Assembly: GCA_028865725.1 (NCBI GenBank)
Contig: JAGWJP010000003.1
Coordinates: 65,697-129,696, forward strand
From: Patescibacteria group bacterium
GTDB lineage: Bacteria > Patescibacteriota > Minisyncoccia > UBA6257 > JACRHW01
Direction: 5' to 3'
DNA length: 64,000 nt
Numbering within the stretch: position 1 is the stretch's first letter; the number at the start of each line of letters is the position of its first letter. Below the pieces are notes generated by a model. That model worked only from the letters and a program-made list of their open reading frames with translations. It did no database searches and was not told where the DNA came from. This document shows, piece after piece, positions 3,613 through 24,147 of this stretch. The position numbers were made by a program, and so were the translations under genes.

Positions 3613-4842
3613 ATGTTTGATTTAAAGAATTTTTCCTCTGCAATTGAACAAATAGCTGAGGAGCGTAATATTACTAAAGAATCTATCGTTGAGGCAATTG
3701 AAGCGGCTGTTGCGACCGCGTATCGCAAAGAGTACGGAAGCAAAGGAGAACACATTCGTGCAAAACTAGATCTTGAAACGGGAACGTTTCAGTTTTGGCA
3801 AGTGAAGACTGTGCTTGATGAGAGTATGGTAAAAACAGAAGAAGAGATTGCACAAGAGGCAGCAGAAGATTATATCCCCCACGAGCTACAGGAAGGTGAA
3901 GTAAAAAAATATGTGTTTAATCCAGAACACCATATTATGCTTGATGAAGCTCAAATAGATGATCCAAAGATTCAAGTGGGAGATGAAGTAACTTATCCTT
4001 TGGAGCCTCACGCTGATTTTGGACGTATTGCAGCACAAGCAGCAAAACAGGTGGTGTTGCAGAAAATTCGTGAAGCTGAAAAGACTACCGTTTATCAGGA
4101 ATATAAACAAAAGGAGGGAACATTGGTAAGCGGTCTTATCCAACGCATTGAAGGAAGAAACGTCTATGTTGATTTAGGAAAGACAGTGGGTATTATGTAT
4201 GCGAATGAAGGCATTTATGATGAACGATACCGTATTGGCGAGCGGCGACGTTTTTATATTCTTGCGGTACAGGAAGACATGAAAGGTCCTGCGGTTATTC
4301 TTTCCCGCGCTCATCCTCAATTTGTAGCAAAATTATTTGAAATAGAAGTCCCCGAGATAAATGATAATATTGTAGAAATTAAAGCAATTGCGCGTGAACC
4401 AGGAAGTCGCACCAAAATAGCAGTCGTAACTCATGTAGAGGCTATAGATCCTATTGGTTCATGTGTGGGTCAGAAAGGAACACGTGTGATGGCGGTTATG
4501 AACGAATTAGGAGGAGAAAAAATTGATATTATCGCATGGTCTGAAGATCCGGCCACATTTATTACTAATGCGCTTTCTCCCGCAAAAGTACAAGATATCG
4601 AGATCCACCCTTATCGAGAAGCGTTGGTATATGTGGCCCCGGAACAAATCAGCCTTGCTATTGGAAGAAGTGGACAAAATGTACGTCTCGCTGCGCGTCT
4701 TACAAATTGGAAGATTGACGTTCGTTCCTCGGAGAAACCAGAAGAGTCTGTAGAGGGGGGGGTGGCGGCCATTTCTGAAGAGGGAGAACAGGAAACAGTT
4801 GTTACTTCGGGAGATTCGGAACATAAAAACGAAATAGAATAA
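3613..4842 (+). CDS. nusA: transcription termination/antitermination factor NusA
   Basis: NusA N-terminal domain motif AIEQIAEERNI...EAIEAAV..AYRK, S1 region and KH domains (DPIGSCVGQKGTRV; AIGRSGQNVRLAARLT). Start chosen at the internal Met (MFDLKNF), which matches the NusA N-terminus. Confidence 0.93.
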   Translation: MFDLKNFSSAIEQIAEERNITKESIVEAIEAAVATAYRKEYGSKGEHIRAKLDLETGTFQFWQVKTVLDESMVKTEEEIAQEAAEDYIPHELQEGEVKKYVFNPEHHIMLDEAQIDDPKIQVGDEVTYPLEPHADFGRIAAQAAKQVVLQKIREAEKTTVYQEYKQKEGTLVSGLIQRIEGRNVYVDLGKTVGIMYANEGIYDERYRIGERRRFYILAVQEDMKGPAVILSRAHPQFVAKLFEIEVPEINDNIVEIKAIAREPGSRTKIAVVTHVEAIDPIGSCVGQKGTRVMAVMNELGGEKIDIIAWSEDPATFITNALSPAKVQDIEIHPYREALVYVAPEQISLAIGRSGQNVRLAARLTNWKIDVRSSEKPEESVEGGVAAISEEGEQETVVTSGDSEHKNEIE

Positions 4843-6656: not shown

Positions 6657-6727
6657 GCGGGATTAGTATAGTGGTAGTACGCGACCTTGCCAAGGTCAAG
6701 GCGCCAGTTCGATTCTGGTATCCCGCT
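6657..6727 (+). tRNA. tRNA-Gly (anticodon GCC)
   Basis: Cloverleaf deduced by eye: acceptor GCGGGAT/ATCCCGC, T-arm GCCAG-TTCGATT-CTGGT, anticodon loop TTGCCAA. 71 nt, no encoded CCA. Confidence 0.88.
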
Positions 6728-8831: not shown

Positions 8832-9278
8832 TTAACGAGATAGTGAAATCGTCTGACTTAATTCGGCATTTGGCGCAGAAACGGTTACTCGCCCCGTGGT
8901 GGCATCCTGATATACTGAATAGGCACTATTGTAGTCGGATGTGCTCGTGTAGTGTGCTCCTGTCGCGCTTGGGTCAAATGGCATGGAGGAAACATAAGTA
9001 GGAACGAGACATCCCGCAATATCATATCCTCCCGTATTTTTCATGGTTGTGCTTGCGGTAGGCAATGACCCTGCAGCACATGTAAAGATACCGTTGTTAT
9101 CTGCCATGTTTTGTCCAATGGCATCTAATATCGTAGTTACATTTGCAGAGCGTTGAGTATTGCGCGCTTGAGCAAATTGTCGCGCAGGATTTAGGGCTAC
9201 AATAACCACTGATGCCAATATGGCAATAATGCCAATCACGACCAAAAGTTCAATAAGAGTAAAACCTTTTTGTTTCAT
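8832..9278 (-). CDS. type IV pilin (major pilin candidate)
   Basis: Class III signal peptide MKQKGFTLIELLVVIGIIAIL (G/FTLIE prepilin cleavage/methylation motif), 148 aa. Confidence 0.88.
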   Translation of the reverse strand: MKQKGFTLIELLVVIGIIAILASVVIVALNPARQFAQARNTQRSANVTTILDAIGQNMADNNGIFTCAAGSLPTASTTMKNTGGYDIAGCLVPTYVSSMPFDPSATGAHYTSTSDYNSAYSVYQDATTGRVTVSAPNAELSQTISLSR

Positions 9279-9365
9279 ATTTTTCGTGAGAGAGAAAGAA
9301 GTAAGCGTACGACCTTTTCAACATATTAAGAATACCACACTAAGAAAAGAAGCTCTATCCACAGA

Positions 9366-9761
9366 TTAAAGAGATGGAATTTCCTCCCAAGCTACTAAAG
9401 AAAGATTCGGGTTAAACTGTACGCTTACCTTCATGTTGGTCACATTGCTTCCTGACACGCCTTTCGTGGTAATAATTTTTTCTCCCGATTGTGATTGAAT
9501 AGGAAAAATTTGACACGTAGAACTTCCCACCGCTACCGTTTGGTTTCCTTGATATGTACTTGAGGCGAGCGCAAGGTTCAGAAGGGCATGCTCCACGCAT
9601 GCATTTGCCAAGGCTGTACTCTCTTCTTTCGAGGTGGTGCGTAGTACGTTCATACGCACGAGATAGCCCCCATAATTTACAGAGAAAACCAGTGCGGAAA
9701 GAATAAGTACCACAAAGATAACTGAAATAAGCATAATGTAGCCTTCTCTATTTTTGTACAT
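9366..9761 (-). CDS. pilus-cluster membrane-anchored hypothetical protein (non-canonical pilin-like N-terminus)
   Basis: N-terminal TM helix MLISVIFVVLILSALVF but no GFTLIE motif. Start trimmed to an internal Met to avoid a 130-nt overlap with the upstream gene. Confidence 0.4.
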   Translation of the reverse strand: MYKNREGYIMLISVIFVVLILSALVFSVNYGGYLVRMNVLRTTSKEESTALANACVEHALLNLALASSTYQGNQTVAVGSSTCQIFPIQSQSGEKIITTKGVSGSNVTNMKVSVQFNPNLSLVAWEEIPSL

Positions 9762-10248
9762 AGAAATTTGAGGAAAAGAGTTTTCCATCGAGCATAAATG
9801 ATGTTTGCAACAATACAATACTGCTGGTCGCATAGGGGAGATACTGTTGGAAGGAGAGTTCTGTCGCTGGAAGGGCATTATTGTTCAGTGGGAGTGGATC
9901 GGCCGAACCAAGTTGTATACGGATATTTCGTTGGTTGTCATCTATTGTAATAGGGTTACTGCCGTAATCTTGTTTAGTAACCACAAGGGCAGGTGTTGTA
10001 GTGCCAATAGCGGGTTCGGTAATGATTGATCCTTCGAGAACCCATTCTATTTTTTTAAGGATAAAATTTGCGTCTTCTTCCACGAGGGATTTTCTCGCTA
10101 TTTCAGTCTGGTTTACCGTAATTGCGTAAAATGTACCAAAGAGCGTTGTAAGGATAAACGAGGTAAGTGCAAGATAGAGTATGGTTTCTAGCAGAGTAAA
10201 CCCAGTGTGGTTATGGAGGACATATCGCTTTTTTCCAAAATATTTCAT
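9748..10248 (-). CDS. prepilin-type N-terminal cleavage/methylation domain protein (minor pilin/pseudopilin)
   Basis: HTGFTLLETILYLAL motif. Confidence 0.8.
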   Translation of the reverse strand: MKYFGKKRYVLHNHTGFTLLETILYLALTSFILTTLFGTFYAITVNQTEIARKSLVEEDANFILKKIEWVLEGSIITEPAIGTTTPALVVTKQDYGSNPITIDDNQRNIRIQLGSADPLPLNNNALPATELSFQQYLPYATSSIVLLQTSFMLDGKLFSSNFYVQK

Positions 10249-10258
10249 GAGGTTTATT

Positions 10259-11668
10259 TTAATTTGAAGGACTTATAATTTGTAATATTTTGGTGCTATC
10301 CATAGAAAGATAAGCGATGTTGTTGAGTACAACAATACCTGTTGGGTTTGCTGATAAGTCAAGAGAACCAAAAAGGTTCGGATTTGATAGATTTGATATA
10401 TCTATGACCTGAAATTCCTTTGAACTATTTTCTGTTGCAAGAAATGCAAGTGTCCCTTCGGCGGCAATACCATTGATCGGGACTCCGCCCACATCATAGC
10501 GCCCTTTGTTTACCGGTGTATTGGGGACAGTGATGTCGACGGGAATGAAATCGTCCCCAATTCCTGTAAACAATGTCGACGGACCACTTGAAAATAAACT
10601 CAGGCCTGATTCTTTGTCAGTAAAATTTATCACCCCTAGTTTTTGGAGCGACGATGGGTTTGTTGCATCAAATATGATAACTTCGTTATTGTGATCCGAG
10701 GTGGCCACGAAAAGGAGGTTGTTGTACTTACTAATGGCATTTACATCCGCATTGATTTCGGTTGTACTTATCCAGACGGGATTTAAAGGATTGGTGACGT
10801 TGAAAACCTGCAGTTCCCCCCCGGGTGATTTGAATGATCCAATGTATGCATATCCATTCTGTACAAAAATACTCTTTCCATTCTGTGTAACGCCGTTCAT
10901 GCGCGCGCTGCTTACGACACGCATGAAAGAAGGATTGCTGATGTCGATGATCTGCAGTTGTGTACTGCCCTGACTTGCCGCAAACGCATAATTTCCGCTT
11001 ACTGATACGTCATTTAATGGATTGCCCGTATTCATGCTCCACAGCACTTGTGGATTATCAGGGTTGGTTACATCAAAACTAATAAAGCTTATGATTCGCG
11101 GGGCCATCCAATATCCTGATGCCACCGTTACGTATGCCACATTGTTTTGTACCGCAATTGAGGTTCCGCTGTAACCTCCTGAAGATCCTGAGCCGATGTC
11201 TACGCTTCCGCGCGCTACGGGATTTCCCCAATCACTCTGAGAACCACCCCCACCCCCTTGTTGTCCTTGGGTGCTTGTACTGTTTGCAATTGACCTCCAG
11301 TCAGTGATAAGAGTGCTCAACTCCACTTGTTCCGTGCGCAAAGGGTCTGTCTTCCATGACACGCGACTGATAATTTGTTTCTCTGAACTTGCTACGTCCG
11401 TGACGTCCAGTTCTTTAAAGAATATATTTTCCGTAGAAGTGCTTGAAATGACGGATGAGAAATTATTATTTGCCATCGCTTTGGCGCTTTCCAGATTTTC
11501 TTGCGCATATGTCAATGCCTCATTATTGTGTTGCGTATAAGTGAGCGCAGACTGATTTTTAAACGCAACACCCACCACGGAAAAAAGGCCGAGTGTTGCG
11601 ATAGAAAGGGCTATAAGTACCTCTAGCAGGGAAAAACCTTTTTGTGAATGCGTTGCGTGTATTACCAT
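10259..11668 (-). CDS. pilin-like protein fused to LVIVD-repeat beta-propeller domain (putative pilus tip/adhesin subunit)
   Basis: N-terminus SQKGFSLLEVLIALSIA (prepilin motif). C-terminal part has about 6 repeats of the ...NNVAYV/GNYAFAA... + LQIIDISNPS / LQVFNVTNPLNP / VIIFDATNPSS / FQVIDISNLSNP type, matching LVIVD repeats (PF08309). Confidence 0.8.
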   Translation of the reverse strand: MVIHATHSQKGFSLLEVLIALSIATLGLFSVVGVAFKNQSALTYTQHNNEALTYAQENLESAKAMANNNFSSVISSTSTENIFFKELDVTDVASSEKQIISRVSWKTDPLRTEQVELSTLITDWRSIANSTSTQGQQGGGGGSQSDWGNPVARGSVDIGSGSSGGYSGTSIAVQNNVAYVTVASGYWMAPRIISFISFDVTNPDNPQVLWSMNTGNPLNDVSVSGNYAFAASQGSTQLQIIDISNPSFMRVVSSARMNGVTQNGKSIFVQNGYAYIGSFKSPGGELQVFNVTNPLNPVWISTTEINADVNAISKYNNLLFVATSDHNNEVIIFDATNPSSLQKLGVINFTDKESGLSLFSSGPSTLFTGIGDDFIPVDITVPNTPVNKGRYDVGGVPINGIAAEGTLAFLATENSSKEFQVIDISNLSNPNLFGSLDLSANPTGIVVLNNIAYLSMDSTKILQIISPSN

Positions 11669-12111
11669 GTTATTTGCCCTGCTGGATTTATTGAAATCAA
11701 GAGAGATTTTTGTGCGGTAGTGAGCGTTATGGTTCCTGATGCAGCCGTTCCCCCTGTTAATTGGTCGAAATCGATCTCAGAGAGCCCTGTTTTGGCTACT
11801 CCCCCCGAAGCGGGAAATATTTCATCGTAGGCGGGATTTCTTGACGCGTATGATGTTCCTTGAAATACGGTGTAGGCATTTTGCTGTATGTAAACGCCGT
11901 GATCAGACTGGTCGAAATTACTCATTGCTTCATTGCGTGCTTTTTGGAGTGTAAACACAATCATATTGCGTTCAGATGTAAGCAGGTAGTCCTGATAAGC
12001 TCCGCTAAAAGAGATGGGGAGCAGTGCTATCAGAATGGTACCGATCCCTATCGTAACAAGGAGTTCCAAAATGGTAAAACCTGTTGTCTTGCTATGCTGA
12101 AAGGAAGCCAT
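11662..12111 (-). CDS. prepilin-type N-terminal cleavage/methylation domain protein (minor pilin)
   Basis: KTTGFTILELLVTIGIGTILIAL motif; start set at the internal Met preceding it. Confidence 0.78.
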   Translation of the reverse strand: MASFQHSKTTGFTILELLVTIGIGTILIALLPISFSGAYQDYLLTSERNMIVFTLQKARNEAMSNFDQSDHGVYIQQNAYTVFQGTSYASRNPAYDEIFPASGGVAKTGLSEIDFDQLTGGTAASGTITLTTAQKSLLISINPAGQITW

Positions 12112-12118
12112 CTTTTCA

Positions 12119-13213
12119 TTAATGAATTGCTTGCGTGACTTGATAGATGGGAGTAATGATAGAAAGTGCGACAAAGGCAACGATACCCCCCATAACGAGA
12201 AGCATAACGGGTTCTAGAATGCTCGTAAGATTGTTCACAAGTTCGTCAAGCTCGCTTTCATAAAAATCGGCTAAGTAGAATAGATTGGGCGACAAGTTTC
12301 CTGTTCGTTCTCCTACTTCAATCATACGACTTAGCGTCGAAGCGAAAATGCGCGGATGTTGTTCGAGAAACGTGTACATAGGCTCTCCTTGTTTTACGCG
12401 TTCTGTGAGCGTGATAAGTGCTTCCTTGTGGGGAATGGTTGGCATAATTTGTGCAGTAATGGAGAGTGCTTCTATAATTTTGATGCCGCTTTGTAATAAA
12501 AATGCAAGCGTTCTCGCAAAGAGTGCCATTTCATAATCCAGCGATATTGGTCCGGCGATGGGGAGCAAAAGCACTCCATATTGATATGCGTTTTTTATCG
12601 CTCGTATCCGAAAGAGAAATGTTACGAGGAGAATAACGAATAAGGAGATGATGATAATGAGGATAAGATGTGTATGAAGGCCGGCGGTAAATGCGATAAG
12701 GAGCCGTGTGGTAAGGGGGAGGGTCACTCCCAGGCTTGTGAGCACGGGAATAATTTTGGGGAGAACAAGAAATACGAGAAGACCGCTAATGCCAAGCGTG
12801 GCGAGAAGAATGATAACTGGATATACGAGCGCAGACTTTATTTTTGAGTGCAATTGTTCGTTCTTTTTTAATTCGAGTGCGAGATGTTCTAAATTTTCTA
12901 CCAATGTTCCGCTGCTCTCTCCTATTCTAATAATGTTGATAAATAAATCTCCGAATGCGGATTTAAATTTTTCTAAAGATGAGGATAGGGGTTGCCCATT
13001 TTCGAGATCCGCTTTTACTGTAAGAAGTATTTTTGCAAAATACGGTCCACGTACCTGCCGTTGTATAATAGATACGCTCTCCACAATCGGCATGCCGGAC
13101 TTGGTCATAATGGCGAGATGTTTGGCAAACAAAATACGGTCTGCAAGAGAGACTGAATGGAACAAGATAATAGGAGACGATTGTTTTTTGGATAACTTGT
13201 TATTCATGTGCAA
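12119..13213 (-). CDS. pilC: type IV pilus assembly platform protein PilC (GspF family)
   Basis: Two T2SS-F repeats and polytopic membrane segments; adjacent to pilin genes and the PilB-like ATPase. Confidence 0.85.
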   Translation of the reverse strand: MHMNNKLSKKQSSPIILFHSVSLADRILFAKHLAIMTKSGMPIVESVSIIQRQVRGPYFAKILLTVKADLENGQPLSSSLEKFKSAFGDLFINIIRIGESSGTLVENLEHLALELKKNEQLHSKIKSALVYPVIILLATLGISGLLVFLVLPKIIPVLTSLGVTLPLTTRLLIAFTAGLHTHLILIIIISLFVILLVTFLFRIRAIKNAYQYGVLLLPIAGPISLDYEMALFARTLAFLLQSGIKIIEALSITAQIMPTIPHKEALITLTERVKQGEPMYTFLEQHPRIFASTLSRMIEVGERTGNLSPNLFYLADFYESELDELVNNLTSILEPVMLLVMGGIVAFVALSIITPIYQVTQAIH

Positions 13214-14429
13214 TGCGTAATACTTCTTCTATCGTGGTAATTCCTTCCGCCACCTTTTTAAACCCATCTTGATACATGGTGGTCATACCCTCCCTGATCG
13301 CAATTTTTTTAATGTCCGCTGCAGACTCATGGTTAATGATCGCGTTACGTATCGCATCGCTTACATCGAGGACTTCATAAATGGGAATACGTCCTCGATA
13401 ACCGCTTTTTCCGCACGCGCTGCACCCCTCTCCTTTATAAATTTTCTGAGGTATTGCGATTCCCTGGGGAAGATTGATGGTGAGAAGTTCCTGTTCCTCT
13501 TTTGTGGGGAAGTGTGGTTTTCGGCAATCAGGGCAAATAACGCGAAGAAGGCGCTGCCCAATCGCCACATTTACCGTTGAAGCAATCAGGAATGGTTCTA
13601 TGCCCATATCAAGGAGGCGGGGAAGCGTGGTGGCAGCATCATTGGTGTGAATGGTTGAGAGGAGCAAATGACCGGTGAGGGCCGCATTTACTGCGATTCC
13701 TGCCGTTTCTTCGTCGCGAATTTCTCCTACCATAATAATATTGGGATCTTGGCGGAGAATTGCGCGAAGGCCATTTGCAAATGTAAGTCCTGTTTGATTG
13801 TTTACTTGAATTTGATCCACATTTTCCAGCGAAAACTCTATAGGATCCTCAATGGTAATAATACTTACAGGAGGTTTATTTAGTTCTTTCAGAAGCGTAT
13901 AAAGAGTTGTCGTTTTACCGCTTCCTGTCGGACCAGTAGCGAGAATCATTCCATATGGTTTTGAAATTGCGTGTTGTACGACACTCAAGTCGCGTTCAGA
14001 AAAGCCCACATTTTTAAGTGAAAATTTATCGCCCTGTTCCACAAGAAGACGAAGAACCGCATTTTCATTATAGTATGTGGGAACAATAGAGACACGGATA
14101 TCAAACGATTTCTTGTCATGTGTTTTAAATTTAATACGGCCGTCTTGCGCGGCTTGGTGCTCATCCGTGCGTAGTTCCGCGAGCACTTTAATGCGGCTGA
14201 TAATTTCTGGTTGTATCCCTTTTGGGAAAGTGAATGCATTATACATGATTCCATCAATACGAAGGCGGATTGCGATACCGTCTTCTCCCGGATCGATGTG
14301 GATATCAGAGGCTCGCGACTCATAGGCGTACTCAATAAGCGAGTTGACGATTAGGATAATCGAAATATCGCGATCCGTTTTTTTAAGTTCGCGCTTAATA
14401 ATATCTTGTGGTGATTCTTCTCCGAACAT
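13200..14429 (-). CDS. GspE/PilB-family secretion ATPase, short form (409 aa, lacks N-terminal domain)
   Basis: Walker A GPTGSGKTT, Asp/His boxes, C-terminal tetra-Cys (CPDC...CSAC). Missing the ~150-aa N-terminal domain that the second copy at 27531 has. Confidence 0.85.
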   Translation of the reverse strand: MFGEESPQDIIKRELKKTDRDISIILIVNSLIEYAYESRASDIHIDPGEDGIAIRLRIDGIMYNAFTFPKGIQPEIISRIKVLAELRTDEHQAAQDGRIKFKTHDKKSFDIRVSIVPTYYNENAVLRLLVEQGDKFSLKNVGFSERDLSVVQHAISKPYGMILATGPTGSGKTTTLYTLLKELNKPPVSIITIEDPIEFSLENVDQIQVNNQTGLTFANGLRAILRQDPNIIMVGEIRDEETAGIAVNAALTGHLLLSTIHTNDAATTLPRLLDMGIEPFLIASTVNVAIGQRLLRVICPDCRKPHFPTKEEQELLTINLPQGIAIPQKIYKGEGCSACGKSGYRGRIPIYEVLDVSDAIRNAIINHESAADIKKIAIREGMTTMYQDGFKKVAEGITTIEEVLRIAHE

Positions 14430-14557: not shown

Positions 14558-15769
14558 ATGAAGAGAATGTTTCCAGATAAAGATTGGATTTCCCACGCCC
14601 TTACACATAATGTGGAACGTGTGGTGGGGGAAGAGGATCTTGGGCACCGTCTCCTCACCGGACGGCCGCTACGCATTAAATTCGGAGTAGATGTGACACA
14701 TCCGCTTATTCACCTGGGGCACGGAGTGAGTTTATGGAAAATGCGGGAATTTCAGGAGCACGGGCACAAGGTCTTGTTTCTCATAGGGGATTTTACTACC
14801 CGCATCGGTGACCCCACGGGAAAGAGTAAAACACGCCCAGAGCGCACCGAAGCAGAGATAGAACGTGACGCGAGGTTATATATTGAGCAGGTCACCAAGA
14901 TTTTAATTGACGATTCTTCTGTGTTTGAGGTGCGTAGAAATTCGGAATGGTATGGTATGATGCCGCTTAGTGAATTTTTGGGTCTTTGCAGAAAAATTAC
15001 CCATGCACGCCTTATTGAGCGCGATATGTTTCAAAAGCGTATGGGAGAAGGGAGTGAAATTTATATGCATGAGTTGCTCTATCCCATCTTGCAAGGCTAC
15101 GATTCTGTTGTGCTTAAATCCGACCTTACCATCATTGGTTCTGATCAGCTTTTTAATGAGATGATGGGGCGCCACTATCAGACATTATTTGGCCAGTCTC
15201 CCCAAGCCATTATGACGACGGTGATTACCCCAGGGCTTGATGGAAAAGAAAAGCAATCGAAGTCTCTTGGAAACTTTATCGCAATCTCTGATACGCCAAG
15301 CGATATGTATGGCAAAACAATGACACTCCCCGATGAACTTATTGTGACCTATTTCCGCGTGTACACGTTTGCAAGCATGGAGGAGATTGATGCATACGAA
15401 ACTGAACTTAACAACGGTGCAAACCCCCGTGATGTGAAGATGAAACTTGCGCATGCGCTTGTCTCTCTCTATCATGGCACAGAGGCGGCGGACAATGCTC
15501 AGGAGAATTTTGTAAATACGTTTCAGAAGAAACAGGTGGGTGAGGATGTAGGTGAGGTGACCGTGAAACTCCCGCTCAGTATCACGGAGTTTCTTAAAGA
15601 GTCAGGTCATGTGAAATCCAATTCCGAAGCGCGTCGCCTTGTTGATGAGCGCGGTGTTCGTATGGAAGGGGAGACCATTACAGATCCACAACATATGCTT
15701 GAGGAGGGTGACAATGGAAAGATCATCAAGGTAGGAAAACGTTATTTTTACAAGATCGTCACGCAGTAA
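14558..15769 (+). CDS. tyrS: tyrosine--tRNA ligase
   Basis: Class I HIGH (HPLIHLGHG) and KMSKS-like (KQSKSLGN) motifs, C-terminal S4 domain (ARRLVDERGVRMEGE). Confidence 0.9.
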   Translation: MKRMFPDKDWISHALTHNVERVVGEEDLGHRLLTGRPLRIKFGVDVTHPLIHLGHGVSLWKMREFQEHGHKVLFLIGDFTTRIGDPTGKSKTRPERTEAEIERDARLYIEQVTKILIDDSSVFEVRRNSEWYGMMPLSEFLGLCRKITHARLIERDMFQKRMGEGSEIYMHELLYPILQGYDSVVLKSDLTIIGSDQLFNEMMGRHYQTLFGQSPQAIMTTVITPGLDGKEKQSKSLGNFIAISDTPSDMYGKTMTLPDELIVTYFRVYTFASMEEIDAYETELNNGANPRDVKMKLAHALVSLYHGTEAADNAQENFVNTFQKKQVGEDVGEVTVKLPLSITEFLKESGHVKSNSEARRLVDERGVRMEGETITDPQHMLEEGDNGKIIKVGKRYFYKIVTQ

Positions 15770-15779
15770 TCTTGGCGGC

Positions 15780-16740
15780 CTACAAAATGGGGCTCACCCA
15801 TCTTTCTTTATAGTTACACTTTGCCGTAGACTATGAGTTCCAAAAAGGAACCAGGCAAGAAGCAAAGATAGGAAACTTGAATGTATTCCTGGAAGAATTT
15901 TTAAATTTTCGATGGAAGGCACCAGTGCGATGGTTGACGCCTTTTTTCGAAAATTTGAAAACGACGCATGGCGGCGCGTTTAAAAGTTTTTTTCCTGTTT
16001 CGTCCTTTAAGGACTCATCAGTGTCGATTCACATCGACAGACAGGGGGAGAGGAGCGCCTCTCCCACGGACTCGTTTTTCAACAAGTCCTAGTATGATTT
16101 TCTTGGCTTCTGATTTGGCGAGGAATCAGAAGCCGGTTGCGTGTCCGCCCACGGCTTTTTGCAGGAAAGCTCCTGTCGAGACATAGCGCTGCAGGTCTCG
16201 ATTCTGGCTTTGCAACATCACCCATGAACCAGTCGCGACGTGGCTCAAGGGGGTTACACCACTCCATTTGGAAATTGCACCCACCACCCTTGGTAGTCGG
16301 GCGCAACCTCTCTTCTCACACTTGGCGTTTTTAGGGAGTGTGAGAGGAGTGGCTATGGCACTGCGGGAACCCTTCGCCCCGCTTTATAGCTAAACTTACC
16401 CCCGGGTGTGCGGCGGTGAGTTTAGCGCGCGCCGGATATGCCGGCGGGGCGTGTGCCATACACCGTTTTTCAGCCTTTACTGCGAGCGGTCGGTTGCCGC
16501 ACGCGGCACGCGGAGTATCCGCATTTCGTTCTTCACCTCCTTTCTTGTCTAATTACCACGAGAGGGAAGCGAGCTAAGGATTGCGGAGTGTGGTACCTGA
16601 TTCGGATAGTGGGTGTAGTATTAATTCCCAACCGTCAGGGCTTCACAGTTCCACACGTGCTTAGTTCACTTGCGTCTCGTGGCAACTCGCGCTTGACCTT
16701 CTTTCATTGTGCTGCTTGCATTATAGCAAATAGAATTTAA
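15780..16740. ncRNA. ~0.9-kb GC-rich ORF-free island with multiple stable stems; candidate large structured RNA(s), identity unresolved
   Basis: GC about 60-65% versus about 42% in flanks; six-frame ORFs all <100 aa with implausible composition. Perfect hairpins include GGGAGAGG-AGCG-CCTCTCCC (16046-16066) and GCTAAACTTACC...GGTGAGTTTAGC (16388-16426). Strand unknown. Confidence 0.4.
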
Positions 16741-16927
16741 TTTGTCAAGCATAGCTGACATATTGTAGAAAAATACTAGGTTTTTCTTAATATTTACGTA
16801 TAATTTCTATGTCCGAATTTTCTAACACTTTTTGATTTCATATTCATAAGTGAAACTTATGTGTAAACATAGATAAGATAAGGTGTGTATACTAGGTACA
16901 TATTTGACACAAAGGGCCAAGGGAAAC

Positions 16928-16956
16928 TTGACCAAAATATCAGTATGTGCTATAAT
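16928..16956 (+). promoter_or_regulatory. near-consensus sigma70 promoter TTGACC-N17-(TGc)TATAAT
   Basis: TTGACC 16928-16933, 17-nt spacer ending TGC, TATAAT 16951-16956. Confidence 0.6.
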
Positions 16957-16962
16957 TTATTC

Positions 16963-17256
16963 GAGTAACGTTGGAGGACAATCGAAATGAACTGGTAGGA
17001 TGAAAAGACTGGCGGGTTAAGAGGGTTTAGGGGAGGTGTAAAAAACATCGCTTGCACCCGCTCTCTCCGTCCAGTATTTTTCACTCTTTTCATTTTTCGA
17101 GTTTTCCAACAAGAAAGGAGGAGTCGCCCATGCTCTGGTAACATAGGCGACGATTTAAAAGGAATGGCGGGGGGGCGCGGAAAAAAGAAAAAGGTTCTTT
17201 ATTCGTATGCCCCCAAGCACCAGAAAGGCCGTGTGGAGACACGGCCTTTATTTTTT
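16963..17256 (+). ncRNA. candidate small RNA (~290 nt), bounded by strong promoter and intrinsic terminator, no ORF
   Basis: Starts ~7 nt after the TATAAT box; ends at the terminator listed at 17226-17256 (stem GGCCGTGT/ACACGGCC + TTTATTTTTT). Only 3-codon ORFs inside, although one has a perfect SD (AAAGGAGG-N7-ATG CTC TGG TAA). Confidence 0.45.
17226..17256 (+). terminator. rho-independent terminator (plus strand)
   Basis: GGCCGTGT-GGAG-ACACGGCC-TTTATTTTTT. Confidence 0.7.
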
Positions 17257-17278
17257 ATGTGGTAATCTTCCTCCAGGC

Positions 17279-18058
17279 TTATTGATTGTATTGTTCGGCG
17301 GCATCCCACGCGAGATTAAAAATTACTCGAAACGAGGAGGCAATATCATTGCTTTGGATCGTAACACCAAGCAACTGCTCGCCATAAGAGATTAAGACGA
17401 GGTAGTCCTGACCATATACAGTGACACTACTTGTAAAAGGGAACTTATCTTTTGGAATATAGCGCGCTTCGCGTAACACGTTTTCGCTTGTGGCACCTGT
17501 GAGAGGGCCTTCAGCGCGGGTGTAAATGACTTTGTTGCGAAGTTTTTTATTTGAACGCTCTTTGCTGTAGGTTGATTCATAGTTCGGGAAGACGCGGAGG
17601 AGTTCATCAAGAGGGGTGAACCCCACAATCTCTTCCGTGACCGTCTCCGCAAGACGCAAAAATTCTTCTTGCATCGCGATAATACCTTCTTTTCCTTCGT
17701 AAAATTTTACTTTTGGTCTATTTTCCGTGAGATTGAAGAGCGCTTTGAGTTCAGGAATAATTTCTTGGAGGTAGGTGTGTTTGAGCGCAATGTCCGCTTT
17801 CTCTTTTTCAAGGAGACGATCAAGCTGTTCAGGGGATTCCGCGGAAAACAATGTTTTTTTTCCTGATTCTGCAGTGGTAACAAGTCCGTTTTTCATGAGG
17901 GAGTCGAGAATCACGTACGTGGTAGGGCGTTGTACCTCTGCTTTTTTCGCGATATGTTGTACCGTGGCCTGTCCTAATTCAAGAGTTGCAAGATAGACTT
18001 TTGCTTCTTTTTCCGAGAGGCCGAGTTTTTCAAGATTGCGTTCAAGGGGCGTATTCAT
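17279..18058 (-). CDS. TrmB-family transcriptional regulator (sugar-responsive type)
   Basis: N-terminal wHTH LGLSEKEAKVYLATLELGQATVQHIAKKAEVQRPTTYVILDSLMKNGLV typical of TrmB; C-terminal effector domain. Confidence 0.75.
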   Translation of the reverse strand: MNTPLERNLEKLGLSEKEAKVYLATLELGQATVQHIAKKAEVQRPTTYVILDSLMKNGLVTTAESGKKTLFSAESPEQLDRLLEKEKADIALKHTYLQEIIPELKALFNLTENRPKVKFYEGKEGIIAMQEEFLRLAETVTEEIVGFTPLDELLRVFPNYESTYSKERSNKKLRNKVIYTRAEGPLTGATSENVLREARYIPKDKFPFTSSVTVYGQDYLVLISYGEQLLGVTIQSNDIASSFRVIFNLAWDAAEQYNQ

Positions 18059-22828: not shown

Positions 22829-23632
22829 CTATATCCTCCCCATCAACCCCTCGAAAATCTCGAAAGAAGGCTTTGCGTAGCGGAAAGAAAACTCGTTCAC
22901 GTAAGATTGCAAATACTTCCGAGAAACCGAGTGATATGTCCCCGAAAGAGAACGCTTGAGCTGGCTCCAAAACCCTTCAATGGTATTGGTATGCGTAGCT
23001 CCTCGTGCATACTCTTTTTTCCAGTGATTGACGGATGAGTGCGTAAACCCTAGTTTTGTTGTTTTCTTGTACACCCCGAACTTATCAGACACGATAGCAG
23101 ACCCAGTAGCAATGTTCTTTTTAATCTCTTTCAAGATAAGGTGCGTTTCACGGGCAGATAAGGTTTTTGTCTTTACCGCACCGCCACGAGATACCATACC
23201 GAATACAGGCGTTTTGTCCTTACCACCCTTTCCTCCTTTCCGATAGCCACCGATGTATGTTTCATCCACTTCCACGATACCAGAGAGCTTGTCGCCATCT
23301 TGTGCCATCAACGCACGCACTTGATGGGCAATCCTCCACGCTGTCTTGTAGGTAACTCCAAGCTGACGCTGTAGTTCTTTGGCAGATACTCCATTCTTAG
23401 AGGATGCAAAGAGAAAGATAGCATAAAACCATAGCGTAAGAGGCGTAGAGGACTTTTCAAAGATTGTTCCTACCAAAGGATGAAGCTGTTGCCCTTGAGG
23501 ATTGGCATAGCACTTACGCCCTTTTACGAAATAGTACTGTTTAGCGTTCGGGTACTTCTTAGCAAAGATATAGTCTAAACACGCCTTTTCATCAGGAAAC
23601 TCTTTTTTGAAATTATTGATTGTGTAGTTCAT
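22829..23632 (-). CDS. IS1595-family DDE transposase (ISXO2-like)
   Basis: VEVDETYIGG, IVSDKFGVY, HTNTIEGFWSQLKRSLSGTYHSVSRKYLQSYVNEFSFRY (DDE_Tnp_IS1595 signature). Confidence 0.9.
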   Translation of the reverse strand: MNYTINNFKKEFPDEKACLDYIFAKKYPNAKQYYFVKGRKCYANPQGQQLHPLVGTIFEKSSTPLTLWFYAIFLFASSKNGVSAKELQRQLGVTYKTAWRIAHQVRALMAQDGDKLSGIVEVDETYIGGYRKGGKGGKDKTPVFGMVSRGGAVKTKTLSARETHLILKEIKKNIATGSAIVSDKFGVYKKTTKLGFTHSSVNHWKKEYARGATHTNTIEGFWSQLKRSLSGTYHSVSRKYLQSYVNEFSFRYAKPSFEIFEGLMGRI

Positions 23633-23664
23633 ATGCTTAAGTCTAGCAAATGCACTACTTGGTG

Positions 23665-24147
23665 TCAAGGGATAGTTACCTTTGTTTTTTTGTGCATGGG
23701 GTAGGCGAGTGCGCCACAAAGTGCGATTGCGAGCGCATCACTTTCGTCATCGTATTTCGGTTTTTTTGCGAGCGCGAGTACTTTGAGCGTCATGGTTTCG
23801 AGCTGTTTTTTGTCAGCACGCCCATACCCTGTGATGTATTGTTTTACTTCAAGGGGAGTGAATTCGAGAATGGGAATATTTTGTTTTTGAATGAGAAACT
23901 TTATGACGCCACGCATTTCCGTGACTTCAAGCGCAGTTTTCTGGTTTTTTGCAAAGAATATCTTTTCGATGGCAGCAGCCTCTGGTTTATGGGTGGCAAT
24001 AAGCGAGGTAAATTCTTTTTCAAAACGGTGAGAATCCTGTGGGTATTCAAAAAGTCCTGACGCTGACGCACGAAATGCGGACCCTTCTTTATGGACAATT
24101 CCAAATCCTATGCGCGTGGTGCCAGGATCGATACCGAGAATAGTCAT
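23665..24147 (-). CDS. ruvC: crossover junction endodeoxyribonuclease RuvC
   Basis: MTILGIDPGTTRIGFGIV N-terminus, catalytic acidic residues. The last ~9 codons and the stop are supplied by the TSD/IR of the IS. Confidence 0.9.
   Translation of the reverse strand: MTILGIDPGTTRIGFGIVHKEGSAFRASASGLFEYPQDSHRFEKEFTSLIATHKPEAAAIEKIFFAKNQKTALEVTEMRGVIKFLIQKQNIPILEFTPLEVKQYITGYGRADKKQLETMTLKVLALAKKPKYDDESDALAIALCGALAYPMHKKTKVTIP

Follow-up and report, generated by a model that had tools for sequence, protein, structure and literature searches.

What does a GC-rich, strongly folding island without a credible open reading frame (ORF) encode in a Patescibacteria chromosome? We addressed this question for the region beside tyrS in a 64-kb window (the whole stretch of DNA analyzed here, i.e., 64,000 nucleotides, positions 65,697 to 129,696, of contig JAGWJP010000003.1 from assembly GCA_028865725.1). 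For this region, an initial annotation made by reading the sequence without database searches had proposed either one large ornate noncoding RNA (ncRNA) or a tandem of divergent housekeeping ncRNAs. The interpretation that we favor, with a probability of roughly 60%, takes the island to be the body of one noncoding transcription unit on the minus strand, which would yield a stable ncRNA processed by a hammerhead ribozyme and which belongs to a hypervariable cassette locus. The recognizable component of this RNA belongs to a known ribozyme family, of which it is a new representative in an unusual place, and its body is an orphan. Read from the promoter toward tyrS, the features that we refer to below are the following.

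16720..16778, minus strand: promoter region as a whole, including a conserved upstream block at 16778-16757
16748-16720, minus strand: extended sigma-70 promoter from a promoter scan (12/12 matches, extended -10)
16748-16743, minus strand: -35 element TTGACA, followed by a 17-nt spacer in which TG precedes the -10 element
16725-16720, minus strand: -10 element TATAAT, from the promoter scan
16551..16713, minus strand: conserved 5′ domain of ~160 nt (D1), defined by blastn, covariation, and folding
16067..16550, minus strand: GC-rich multi-hairpin body of ~485 nt, defined by thermodynamic fold and GC content
16548-16537, minus strand: Shine-Dalgarno (SD)-like sequence AGAAAGGAGGUG, read from the sequence (plus-strand complement CACCUCCUUUCU)
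16477..16548, minus strand: the same SD-like site together with an AUG at 16524 and a 15-codon mini-ORF (MRILRVPRAATDRSQ, then stop) ending at 16477, read from the sequence
16046..16065, minus strand: clamp hairpin GGGAGAGG-CGCU-CCUCUCCC (-15.7 kcal/mol), abutting stem III of the hammerhead
15992..16047, minus strand: type III hammerhead ribozyme (Rfam RF00008)
15770..15991, minus strand: tail of ~220 nt from the hammerhead to the tyrS stop codon, with background GC content and no credible ORF
14558-15769: tyrS, convergent with the island RNA

Promoter, conserved 5′ domain, and hammerhead ribozyme

Relatives of the source genome were sought via tyrS, the product of which is identical to a protein annotated in a Patescibacteria metagenome-assembled genome (MAG). 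The GTDB species genomes gave at most 39% identity, and closer MAGs, from Parcubacteria, were reached through the protein database and contigs. The nearest of these relatives are 70 to 72% identical in tyrS, with contig L270 being the closest. We place the island RNA on the minus strand because of the sigma-70 promoter, the type III hammerhead, and the strand-specific G.U pairs of the D1 helices, where several pairs are G.U in some sequences and would be C.A on the opposite strand. Transcription probably starts near 16713. The promoter hexamers and the upstream block are unchanged in the window, L005, L019, and L011, and also in L012 (alignment A1), an invariance that holds even though the tyrS sequences of those relatives are only 70 to 72% identical.

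The nucleotide similarity of the window to the tyrS-linked relatives is confined to 16797-16559, i.e., to the promoter and the first ~155 nt, with blastn identities of 74 to 81% to L005, L011, L012, and L019 in the D1 part only. D1 consists of a short leader followed by an irregular stem-loop of ~135 nt (16687-16551), whose 13-nt apical loop, GGG-AAUUAAUACUAC-N-CCC (plus-strand 16611-16629), is invariant in the window, L005, L019, and L011. Its consensus fold comprises 45 pairs, with 95% of the cells paired. Nine of these 45 pairs are changed on both sides, compared with 3.0 ± 1.4 in shuffled alignments (0/500 reach 9) and 0 to 1 when the partners are slid. Compensatory change of the kind expected for a conserved structured RNA was found for 16713-16551 only. 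When folded separately, the D1 sequences of the window and L005 adopt the same long stem-loop (z = -5.8 and -5.0, respectively). D1 is a real conserved structured RNA element, small and new, with a very narrow distribution: a scan of metagenomes for the loop motif returned 15 loci, among which 4 (L014, L015, L019, and L025) are true homologs from one narrow clade. The remaining loci were rejected as chance matches in a phage coding sequence. At L016-L018, L020, L021, L023, L024, L026, L028, and L072, the 21-nt motif coincides by chance with the coding sequence of an estuarine/marine phage family that has no relation to the RNA, and scans of IMG/VR with the D1 motifs likewise gave chance matches only and no D1. 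The loop sequence AAUUAAUACUAC contains the palindrome AUUAAU and could mediate loop-loop contacts; a search by complementarity within the window found no target of the loop above chance.

Three relatives carry a 122-nt near-perfect hairpin (-41 kcal/mol) within an internal loop of D1 (L011, 8528-8649; L012, 8626-8747; L015, 1375-1496), and these carriers are the relatives from Hainich groundwater. We considered a miniature inverted-repeat transposable element as the origin of this insertion, an assignment that is unsupported, with no other copy in the sequences compared.

Given that conservation is restricted to the promoter and D1, D1 might be all that matters, as a 5′ stabilizer, a translation-control leader, or a small RNA, with the body as a tolerated passenger that is trimmed by the hammerhead. 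L005 and L019 share 99.3% identity in D1 despite unrelated middles, L011 tolerates the 122-nt insertion, and an SD-like sequence follows 10 to 100 nt after D1 in the window, L011, and L019, all of which fit such a role. We nevertheless regard this explanation as decidedly unlikely, since there is no terminator or processing site between D1 and the body, and since it leaves unexplained why a passenger should exceed every other 500-nt stretch of the window in both GC content and structure.

The island RNA would end in the hammerhead. We scanned all 4,227 models of Rfam 15, applying the gathering score to the whole window and a cutoff of E ≤ 10 to 15500-17400, and the hammerhead was the sole family found in the latter interval. 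The full-length RF00008 model aligns to 16047-15992 on the minus strand with 48.7 bits (gathering score, 48.5; E = 1.2e-7 for the 64-kb window), a match that the initial annotation had missed. The core (CUGAUGA, GAAA, and the cleavage triplet GUC) is without substitution. Stem I (UGUCGA-UGUGAA-UCGACA, 6 bp) leads into CUGAUGA, stem II (GUCC-UUAAA-GGAC, 4 bp, with G10.1-C11.1) is followed by GAAAC, and the 5-bp stem III, CCUG(U)/(A)CAGG, includes A15.1-U16.1. Intact pairs next to the core (10.1-11.1, 1.1-2.1, and 15.1-16.1) are required of hammerheads (PMC3088659). The conserved core, three helices with an open stem III, and a score above the Rfam threshold thus identify a type III hammerhead, and the unconstrained minimum free energy (MFE) structure of 16075-15985 is exactly the clamp hairpin plus the three-stem hammerhead. 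Cleavage is predicted between 16040 (C17) and 16039, which, given a start near 16713, would release an RNA of ~675 nt.

The same module occurs in L270, whose minus strand reads GGAGAG-CAUCGU-CUCUCC CCUGUC UACCGAUGUGCAUCGGUA CUGAUGA AGGCAAAAGCCA GAAACAG, with the clamp-like hairpin GGAGAG-CAUCGU-CUCUCC at the same place. The clamp and hammerhead of L270 form the sole above-chance similarity to the window (76% over 68 nt, E = 4e-7), and stem I differs between the two by two compensatory pairs, G:C>A:U and U:A>C:G. In L270, the module ends 28 nt before the AUG of an 83-amino-acid (aa) ORF. The hammerhead therefore appears to be ancestral to part of the clade. Relatives of the L005 type are without it, and Rfam calls neither a hammerhead nor any other family in L005 and L011 (E ≤ 1) or in L270, L269, L019, and L015 (E ≤ 0.1). 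A candidate decayed hammerhead in the L005-type leader was dropped, as its alignment was unconvincing.

Hammerheads have been known in bacteria since 2010 to 2011, nearly always in prophage operons and with a function that has been called unclear (PMC3088659). Those of prophages were proposed by Perreault et al. (2011) to cut long transcripts into gene-length mRNAs (PMC3088659). In IMG/VR, we found hammerheads with the stem II of the window to be abundant, at no fewer than 120 loci (L149-L268). Among the matches listed, a strong hairpin ends at stem III in 26 of the 32 distinct type III examples, with a mean hairpin energy of -13.5 kcal/mol compared with -5.2 kcal/mol for shuffled sequences (window, -15.7 kcal/mol). 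A hairpin with a type III hammerhead directly behind it recurs as a module in phages. Several IMG/VR contigs bear 2 to 5 hammerheads each. The window shares with these phage and prophage ribozymes (RF00008; PMC3088659) the identical core CUGAUGA...GAAA, the GUC triplet, the stem II GUCC/GGAC, the stem I loop GAUGUGNAUC, the short open stem III, and the strong abutting hairpin. In the phage contigs L272 and L273, which have nearly the same stem I, the order is stop codon, hairpin, hammerhead, ~35 nt, SD, and ATG, so that in L270 and in these phages the module lies ~30 to 40 nt upstream of an SD-ATG. The window differs in that no coding sequence follows, in that the upstream product would be an ncRNA of ~675 nt, and in its location on a Patescibacteria chromosome. 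A literature search yielded no relevant report of hammerheads in candidate phyla radiation bacteria or of hammerheads on large ncRNAs.

A type III hammerhead on a compact, highly base-paired, ORF-less RNA of ~0.7 kb is also reminiscent of Avsunviroidae, retrozymes, and Obelisks, whose RNAs of this kind are below 1 kb. The island could accordingly be taken for a DNA copy of a circular hammerhead RNA or for a small mobile element beside tyrS, a view with which its GC content, foreign to the host, and an IS1595-family transposase 6 kb away would agree. We consider this very improbable. Only one ribozyme was found on either strand at E ≤ 10 in Rfam (the next-best match being drz-agam-2-2, 16 bits, E = 0.25), and there are no tandem or terminal repeats, no target duplications, no direct repeats of more than 25 nt, and no second copy in the window. 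Both the MFE and the centroid structures show a multi-branched domain with tandem hairpins and not a rod. Neither a flanking or opposite-polarity ribozyme (or repeat) nor a rod-like structure was thus observed. Moreover, the element is encoded in DNA in a single copy and a single polarity, has its own sigma-70 promoter and a 5′ domain conserved in the host lineage, lacks an Oblin-like ORF, and carries its hammerhead at the syntenic place in L270; phage, plasmid, and IMG/VR data match the ribozyme core only.

Composition, folding, and coding potential of the body

The initial annotation had described a GC content of 60 to 65% over ~950 nt. GC content is indeed raised, at a lower level and over a shorter span: the window has 43.1% GC, the interval 15780-16740 has 50.6%, and the body (16041-16555) has 56.3%, with 62.5% in the richest 200-nt window, at 16324. 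The enrichment is limited to ~16000-16700 (55.1%), with 15770-15991 at background (41.4%). The 700 nt from 16001 are the GC maximum of the 64 kb (55.1% versus a mean of 43.2% and a standard deviation of 3.3%, i.e., ~3.6 standard deviations). The three hairpins named in that annotation, GGGAGAGG/CCTCTCCC (16046-16065), GCTAAACTTACC/GGTGAGTTTAGC (16389-16426), and CCTCTCTTCTCACACT/AGTGTGAGAGGAGTGG (16307-16352), can be read from the sequence essentially where it had placed them, and there are more, such as a perfect 11-bp stem at 16105-16134.

The whole minus-strand RNA (16715-15985) folds far beyond chance (z = -10.6). For the body alone, the MFE is -230 kcal/mol (z = -9.1) on the minus strand versus -218.8 kcal/mol (z = -5.9) on the plus strand. 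A long-range helix closes a large multi-branched domain in the predicted structure, which also has perfect hairpins at its terminus, such as those at 16134-16105 and 16090-16069.

We found neither an open frame nor protein homologs, also under alternative codes, in agreement with the earlier statement that none of the six frames holds a credible ORF. Under code 11, with which the neighboring genes translate normally, no frame stays free of stops for more than 104 codons. No frame opens with TGA, TAG, or TAA reassigned (the maximum run is 160 of ~330 codons), and the stop-free runs are no longer than chance for 56% GC. The concatenated six-frame translation gave no protein match at E ≤ 10 against 5.8 billion proteins, and when the longest stop-free frame of the body was compared by phmmer with 1.84 billion representatives, a single match was obtained (E = 3e-4), which is a tandem-repeat artifact. 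The extreme z-scores, the lack of an ORF, the promoter and ribozyme, and the conserved, covarying 5′ third together bear out the earlier proposal of a structured RNA. Its more specific proposal, one large ornate ncRNA, is possible: comparative support covers the first ~160 nt only, where D1 is conserved and covaries, and the GC-rich body is absent from the relatives.

The body has no homolog in the contigs of the relatives, L270 included (blastn-type comparison), and blastn against phage and plasmid collections returned no match. When viral loci with hammerheads were compared to the window, the ribozyme alone matched and the body did not. Profiles of conserved RNA modules of the relatives (M2 and M3), searched with nhmmer, have no match in the body, tblastn of the window with the ORFs of the sister cassettes was negative, and no Rfam model matches the body at E ≤ 10. 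The synteny of both flanks (D1 and the hammerhead) with relatives makes a chimeric assembly at this point unlikely. A contig from a second assembly (Logan contig L004) agrees with the window up to ~16151 and ends within the body.

A tandem of divergent housekeeping RNAs (transfer-messenger RNA [tmRNA], RNase P RNA, and a 16S fragment) had been suggested by short resemblances seen by eye, an explanation that the tools used here refute to the extent that they can address it. The Rfam scans detected no tmRNA, RNase P, signal recognition particle, 6S, or rRNA model in 15500-17400, neither at gathering score nor at E ≤ 10, and ARAGORN found only a tRNA-Gly at 6657 and no tmRNA in the window. The motifs had been read on the plus strand, i.e., the nontranscribed one: the supposed 16S 3′ tail, CACCUCCUUUCU, is the complement of the SD-like AGAAAGGAGGUG on the transcribed strand. 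In addition, relatives with the same synteny are without the body, which would be intolerable for an essential RNA. The other families whose inspection had been proposed (GOLLD, ROOL, OLE, HEARO, and raiA), as well as group I and II introns and T-boxes, likewise have no Rfam match in 15500-17400.

The cassette locus in relatives

The order of tyrS, the TrmB-like gene, the gene for iron superoxide dismutase (SodFe), and that for a protein of ~830 aa is retained in the relatives, and this flanking synteny fixes the position of the unit at both ends. At the site of the island, the relatives have a protein of 296 to 310 aa, an 82-aa ORF, and other RNA, and they share the promoter and D1 with the window, with L270 sharing the hammerhead too. 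What follows D1 differs from one relative to the next. In the window, it is the 485 nt of noncoding GC-rich hairpins; in L270, SD-led ORFs of 95 and 75 aa and then ~300 nt of structured RNA; in L011 and L275, a GC-rich 93-aa ORF with more RNA; in L005, 184 nt; and in L019, 286 nt unrelated to those of L005. Between L005 and L019, D1 is 99.3% identical, M3 is 98% identical, and the 82-aa ORF is only 78% identical. Because D1 and M3 are nearly identical in these two contigs and the sequence in between is unrelated, the locus behaves as a cassette site with conserved RNA on either side. The elements of the relatives are the following.

L270 4121-4408 (95 aa) and 3640-3867 (75 aa) and L011 8066-8347 (93 aa), minus strand: SD-led cassette ORFs, mutually unrelated
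L005 10655-10960 (minus strand), L019 428-734, L275 2879-3224 (minus strand), L269 1-187, and L009 10395-10631 (minus strand): M3, a strongly folded RNA module of ~300 nt located 5′ of the 82-aa ORF
L005 9258-10190, L008 9266-10156, L009 9258-10184, L011 6064-6993, and L270 1943-2869, minus strand: conserved 296- to 310-aa protein, convergent with tyrS

M3, which has no Rfam match, may be an independent ncRNA, because in L009, where the ORF is deleted, M3 directly precedes the terminator. The 296- to 310-aa protein has the motifs NFNHHE.VDR, NDCDQD, and CHGGCDMTGGTSR and occurs in all the relatives and not in the window. Searches of the 82-aa, ~300-aa, and 93-aa proteins with Pfam and PHROGs gave nothing above threshold, and no fold in the PDB matches the structure that AlphaFold predicts for the 82-aa protein (pLDDT 70.7). 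A hairpin, AACCAGUCAGGAGrrAUCCGAAGGCUG, lies just 5′ of the first SD in both L270 and L011. In the window, tblastn detected neither the 82-aa nor the ~300-aa protein, even as remnants. The tail downstream of the hammerhead contains hairpins at about 15981-15959 and 15961-15898, and the best match of the M3 profile to the window (nhmmer) lies at 15980-15917 on the minus strand, with an E value of only 0.1; the tail may be a relic of the M3 module that precedes the 82-aa ORF in the relatives.

Taken together, these data suggest the following scenario, under the interpretation of the island as a hammerhead-processed ncRNA. The near-perfect, conserved promoter would start an RNA at ~16713 that consists of D1, the lineage-specific body of ~485 nt, the GC clamp, and, immediately after it, the type III hammerhead. 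The hammerhead would cut in cis between 16040 and 16039 and free an RNA of ~675 nt, whose 2′,3′-cyclic-phosphate end would be tucked behind the clamp hairpin, while the ribozyme would remain on the short downstream piece; the hammerhead would thereby serve as a terminator or processing site. The unit would be the local form of the cassette locus that this Parcubacteria lineage has between tyrS and the TrmB-like gene, in which the promoter and D1 are constant and the rest varies. Ancestrally, either the clamp-hammerhead module (as in L270) or M3 may have divided the cassettes from the 82-aa ORF. Cleavage would then have parted an upstream cassette RNA, ending with a protective hairpin and a cyclic phosphate, from a downstream small-ORF mRNA, starting with a folded ribozyme and a 5′-OH. 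In the window, this ORF and the ~300-aa gene would have been lost, leaving only the cargo RNA, and the module would just set the 3′ end of an ncRNA that faces the convergent tyrS. The unit is likely maintained, because the promoter, D1, the clamp, and a fully canonical ribozyme are all intact. We infer that the RNA is transcribed, cleaves itself, and is protected at its 3′ end and that the body is a stable trans-acting or scaffold RNA and not a passenger.

The comparison with the sister cassettes also opens another explanation, in which the body descends from small-ORF cassettes (one or several) that were acquired horizontally and have become pseudogenes. It would still be transcribed from the conserved promoter, without a function of its own, and its hairpins would be fortuitous or a residue of mRNA structure. 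The SD-like site and AUG lie where the first ORFs of L270 and L011 start and yet are followed by a stop after 15 codons. A similar SD-like site, GAAAGGAGG, precedes the real-looking ORFs of 95 aa in L270 and 93 aa in L011 and L275. The sister cassettes are coding, GC rich, and strongly folded (57 to 61% GC and z = -6.8 in the region of the 93-aa ORF of L011), the downstream 82-aa and ~300-aa genes are lost, and the body is unique to one genome. On the other hand, no frame of the body shows protein similarity at E ≤ 10 apart from the repeat artifact, the sister ORFs find no counterpart by tblastn, the frames do not exceed chance length for 56% GC, and the body folds more strongly (z = -9.1) than its coding sister. 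An intact promoter, D1, clamp, and canonical hammerhead would also be unexpected in a dead locus. On balance, we hold a decayed cassette to be an unlikely origin of the body.

Several observations nevertheless weigh against our preference for a processed ncRNA. The body is known from one MAG, and its structure is a thermodynamic prediction from one sequence. Given that the sister cassettes are coding and that the one in L011 reaches a z of -6.8, a strong fold alone is no proof of noncoding function, and the body has retained an SD-like site, an AUG, and 15 codons at its start. The one U.G pair that the hairpin at 16389-16426 contains on the plus strand becomes a C.A mismatch on the minus strand. 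As for the ribozyme, its score lies only 0.2 bits over the threshold, and stem III has only 5 pairs. Stem II of L270 is weak (GGC/GCC, 3 bp, with an A.A beside the core), and Rfam makes no call there at E ≤ 0.1, so that the clamp-hammerhead module may be decaying in this lineage.

A further-reaching variant of the ncRNA interpretation takes the promoter and D1 as a fixed "expression adaptor" for a locus of cassette exchange that is confined to a Parcubacteria lineage. The cargo would then be a hitherto unknown class of large ornate RNA with a hammerhead-made 3′ end and no terminator, and it would have a trans-acting role, such as that of a protein scaffold or an RNA-only assembly. We regard this variant as speculative and rather unlikely.

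Genomic neighborhood, known systems, and implications

The surroundings of the island are those of a Patescibacteria chromosome, with pilus and housekeeping genes as neighbors and no phage genes within 10 kb. Directly upstream of tyrS lies a type IV pilus or type II secretion system (T2SS)-like cluster (8832-14429, minus strand), which encodes pilin-like proteins with N-methylation motifs, an LVIVD-repeat protein, T2SSF, and the T2SSE ATPase. The IS1595-family transposase (ISXO2-like DDE; 22829-23719, minus strand), 6 kb from the island, is located inside a block that is syntenic in the relatives. A second ncRNA-like unit (16928-17250, plus strand; fold z = -5.9) diverges from the island. It has an 11/12 promoter at 16928-16956, an intrinsic terminator at 17224-17249, and two 3-codon mini-ORFs behind strong SD sequences (ATG AAC TGG TAG, 16987-16998; ATG CTC TGG TAA, 17130-17141). 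This unit has no Rfam match and is not conserved in the relatives by blastn.

Screens for structured RNAs by GC content and length are designed to flag long GC-rich intergenic regions such as this one. The island resembles large ornate ncRNAs (ROOL, GOLLD, OLE, raiA, and HEARO) in its size of 500 to 700 nt, its multi-branched fold, its GC content above that of the genome, its lack of ORFs, and its strong promoter. It differs in that it matches none of them in Rfam at E ≤ 10, in that comparative support covers ~160 nt, and in its occurrence in a handful of MAGs. We know of no ROOL, GOLLD, OLE, raiA, or HEARO class that ends in a hammerhead.

In synthetic ribozyme insulators of the RiboJ type, a hammerhead and a hairpin are placed before the ribosome-binding site, so that cleavage uncouples the downstream mRNA from upstream sequence and leaves a structured 5′-OH end. 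L270 and the phages show the same logic in their order of hammerhead, short A-rich spacer, and SD-ATG; the module of the window is natural, and its downstream gene is gone. The same clamp-hammerhead is thus found before a small ORF in L270 and at the end of an ORF-less folded RNA of ~675 nt in the window, where it looks like ribozyme-based 3′-end formation of an ncRNA in the chromosome of a reduced-genome symbiont. A conserved, covarying D1 that heads wholly different cargos in close relatives is a pattern that fits no matched RNA family. If the body is functional, it would add a large structured RNA to the Patescibacteria, whose ncRNA content is little explored; if it is not, the locus would show how phage-type ribozyme modules persist in cellular genomes. 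In either case, this locus, despite its very narrow distribution, offers a concrete test case for the role of bacterial hammerheads together with a candidate large ncRNA of the Patescibacteria.

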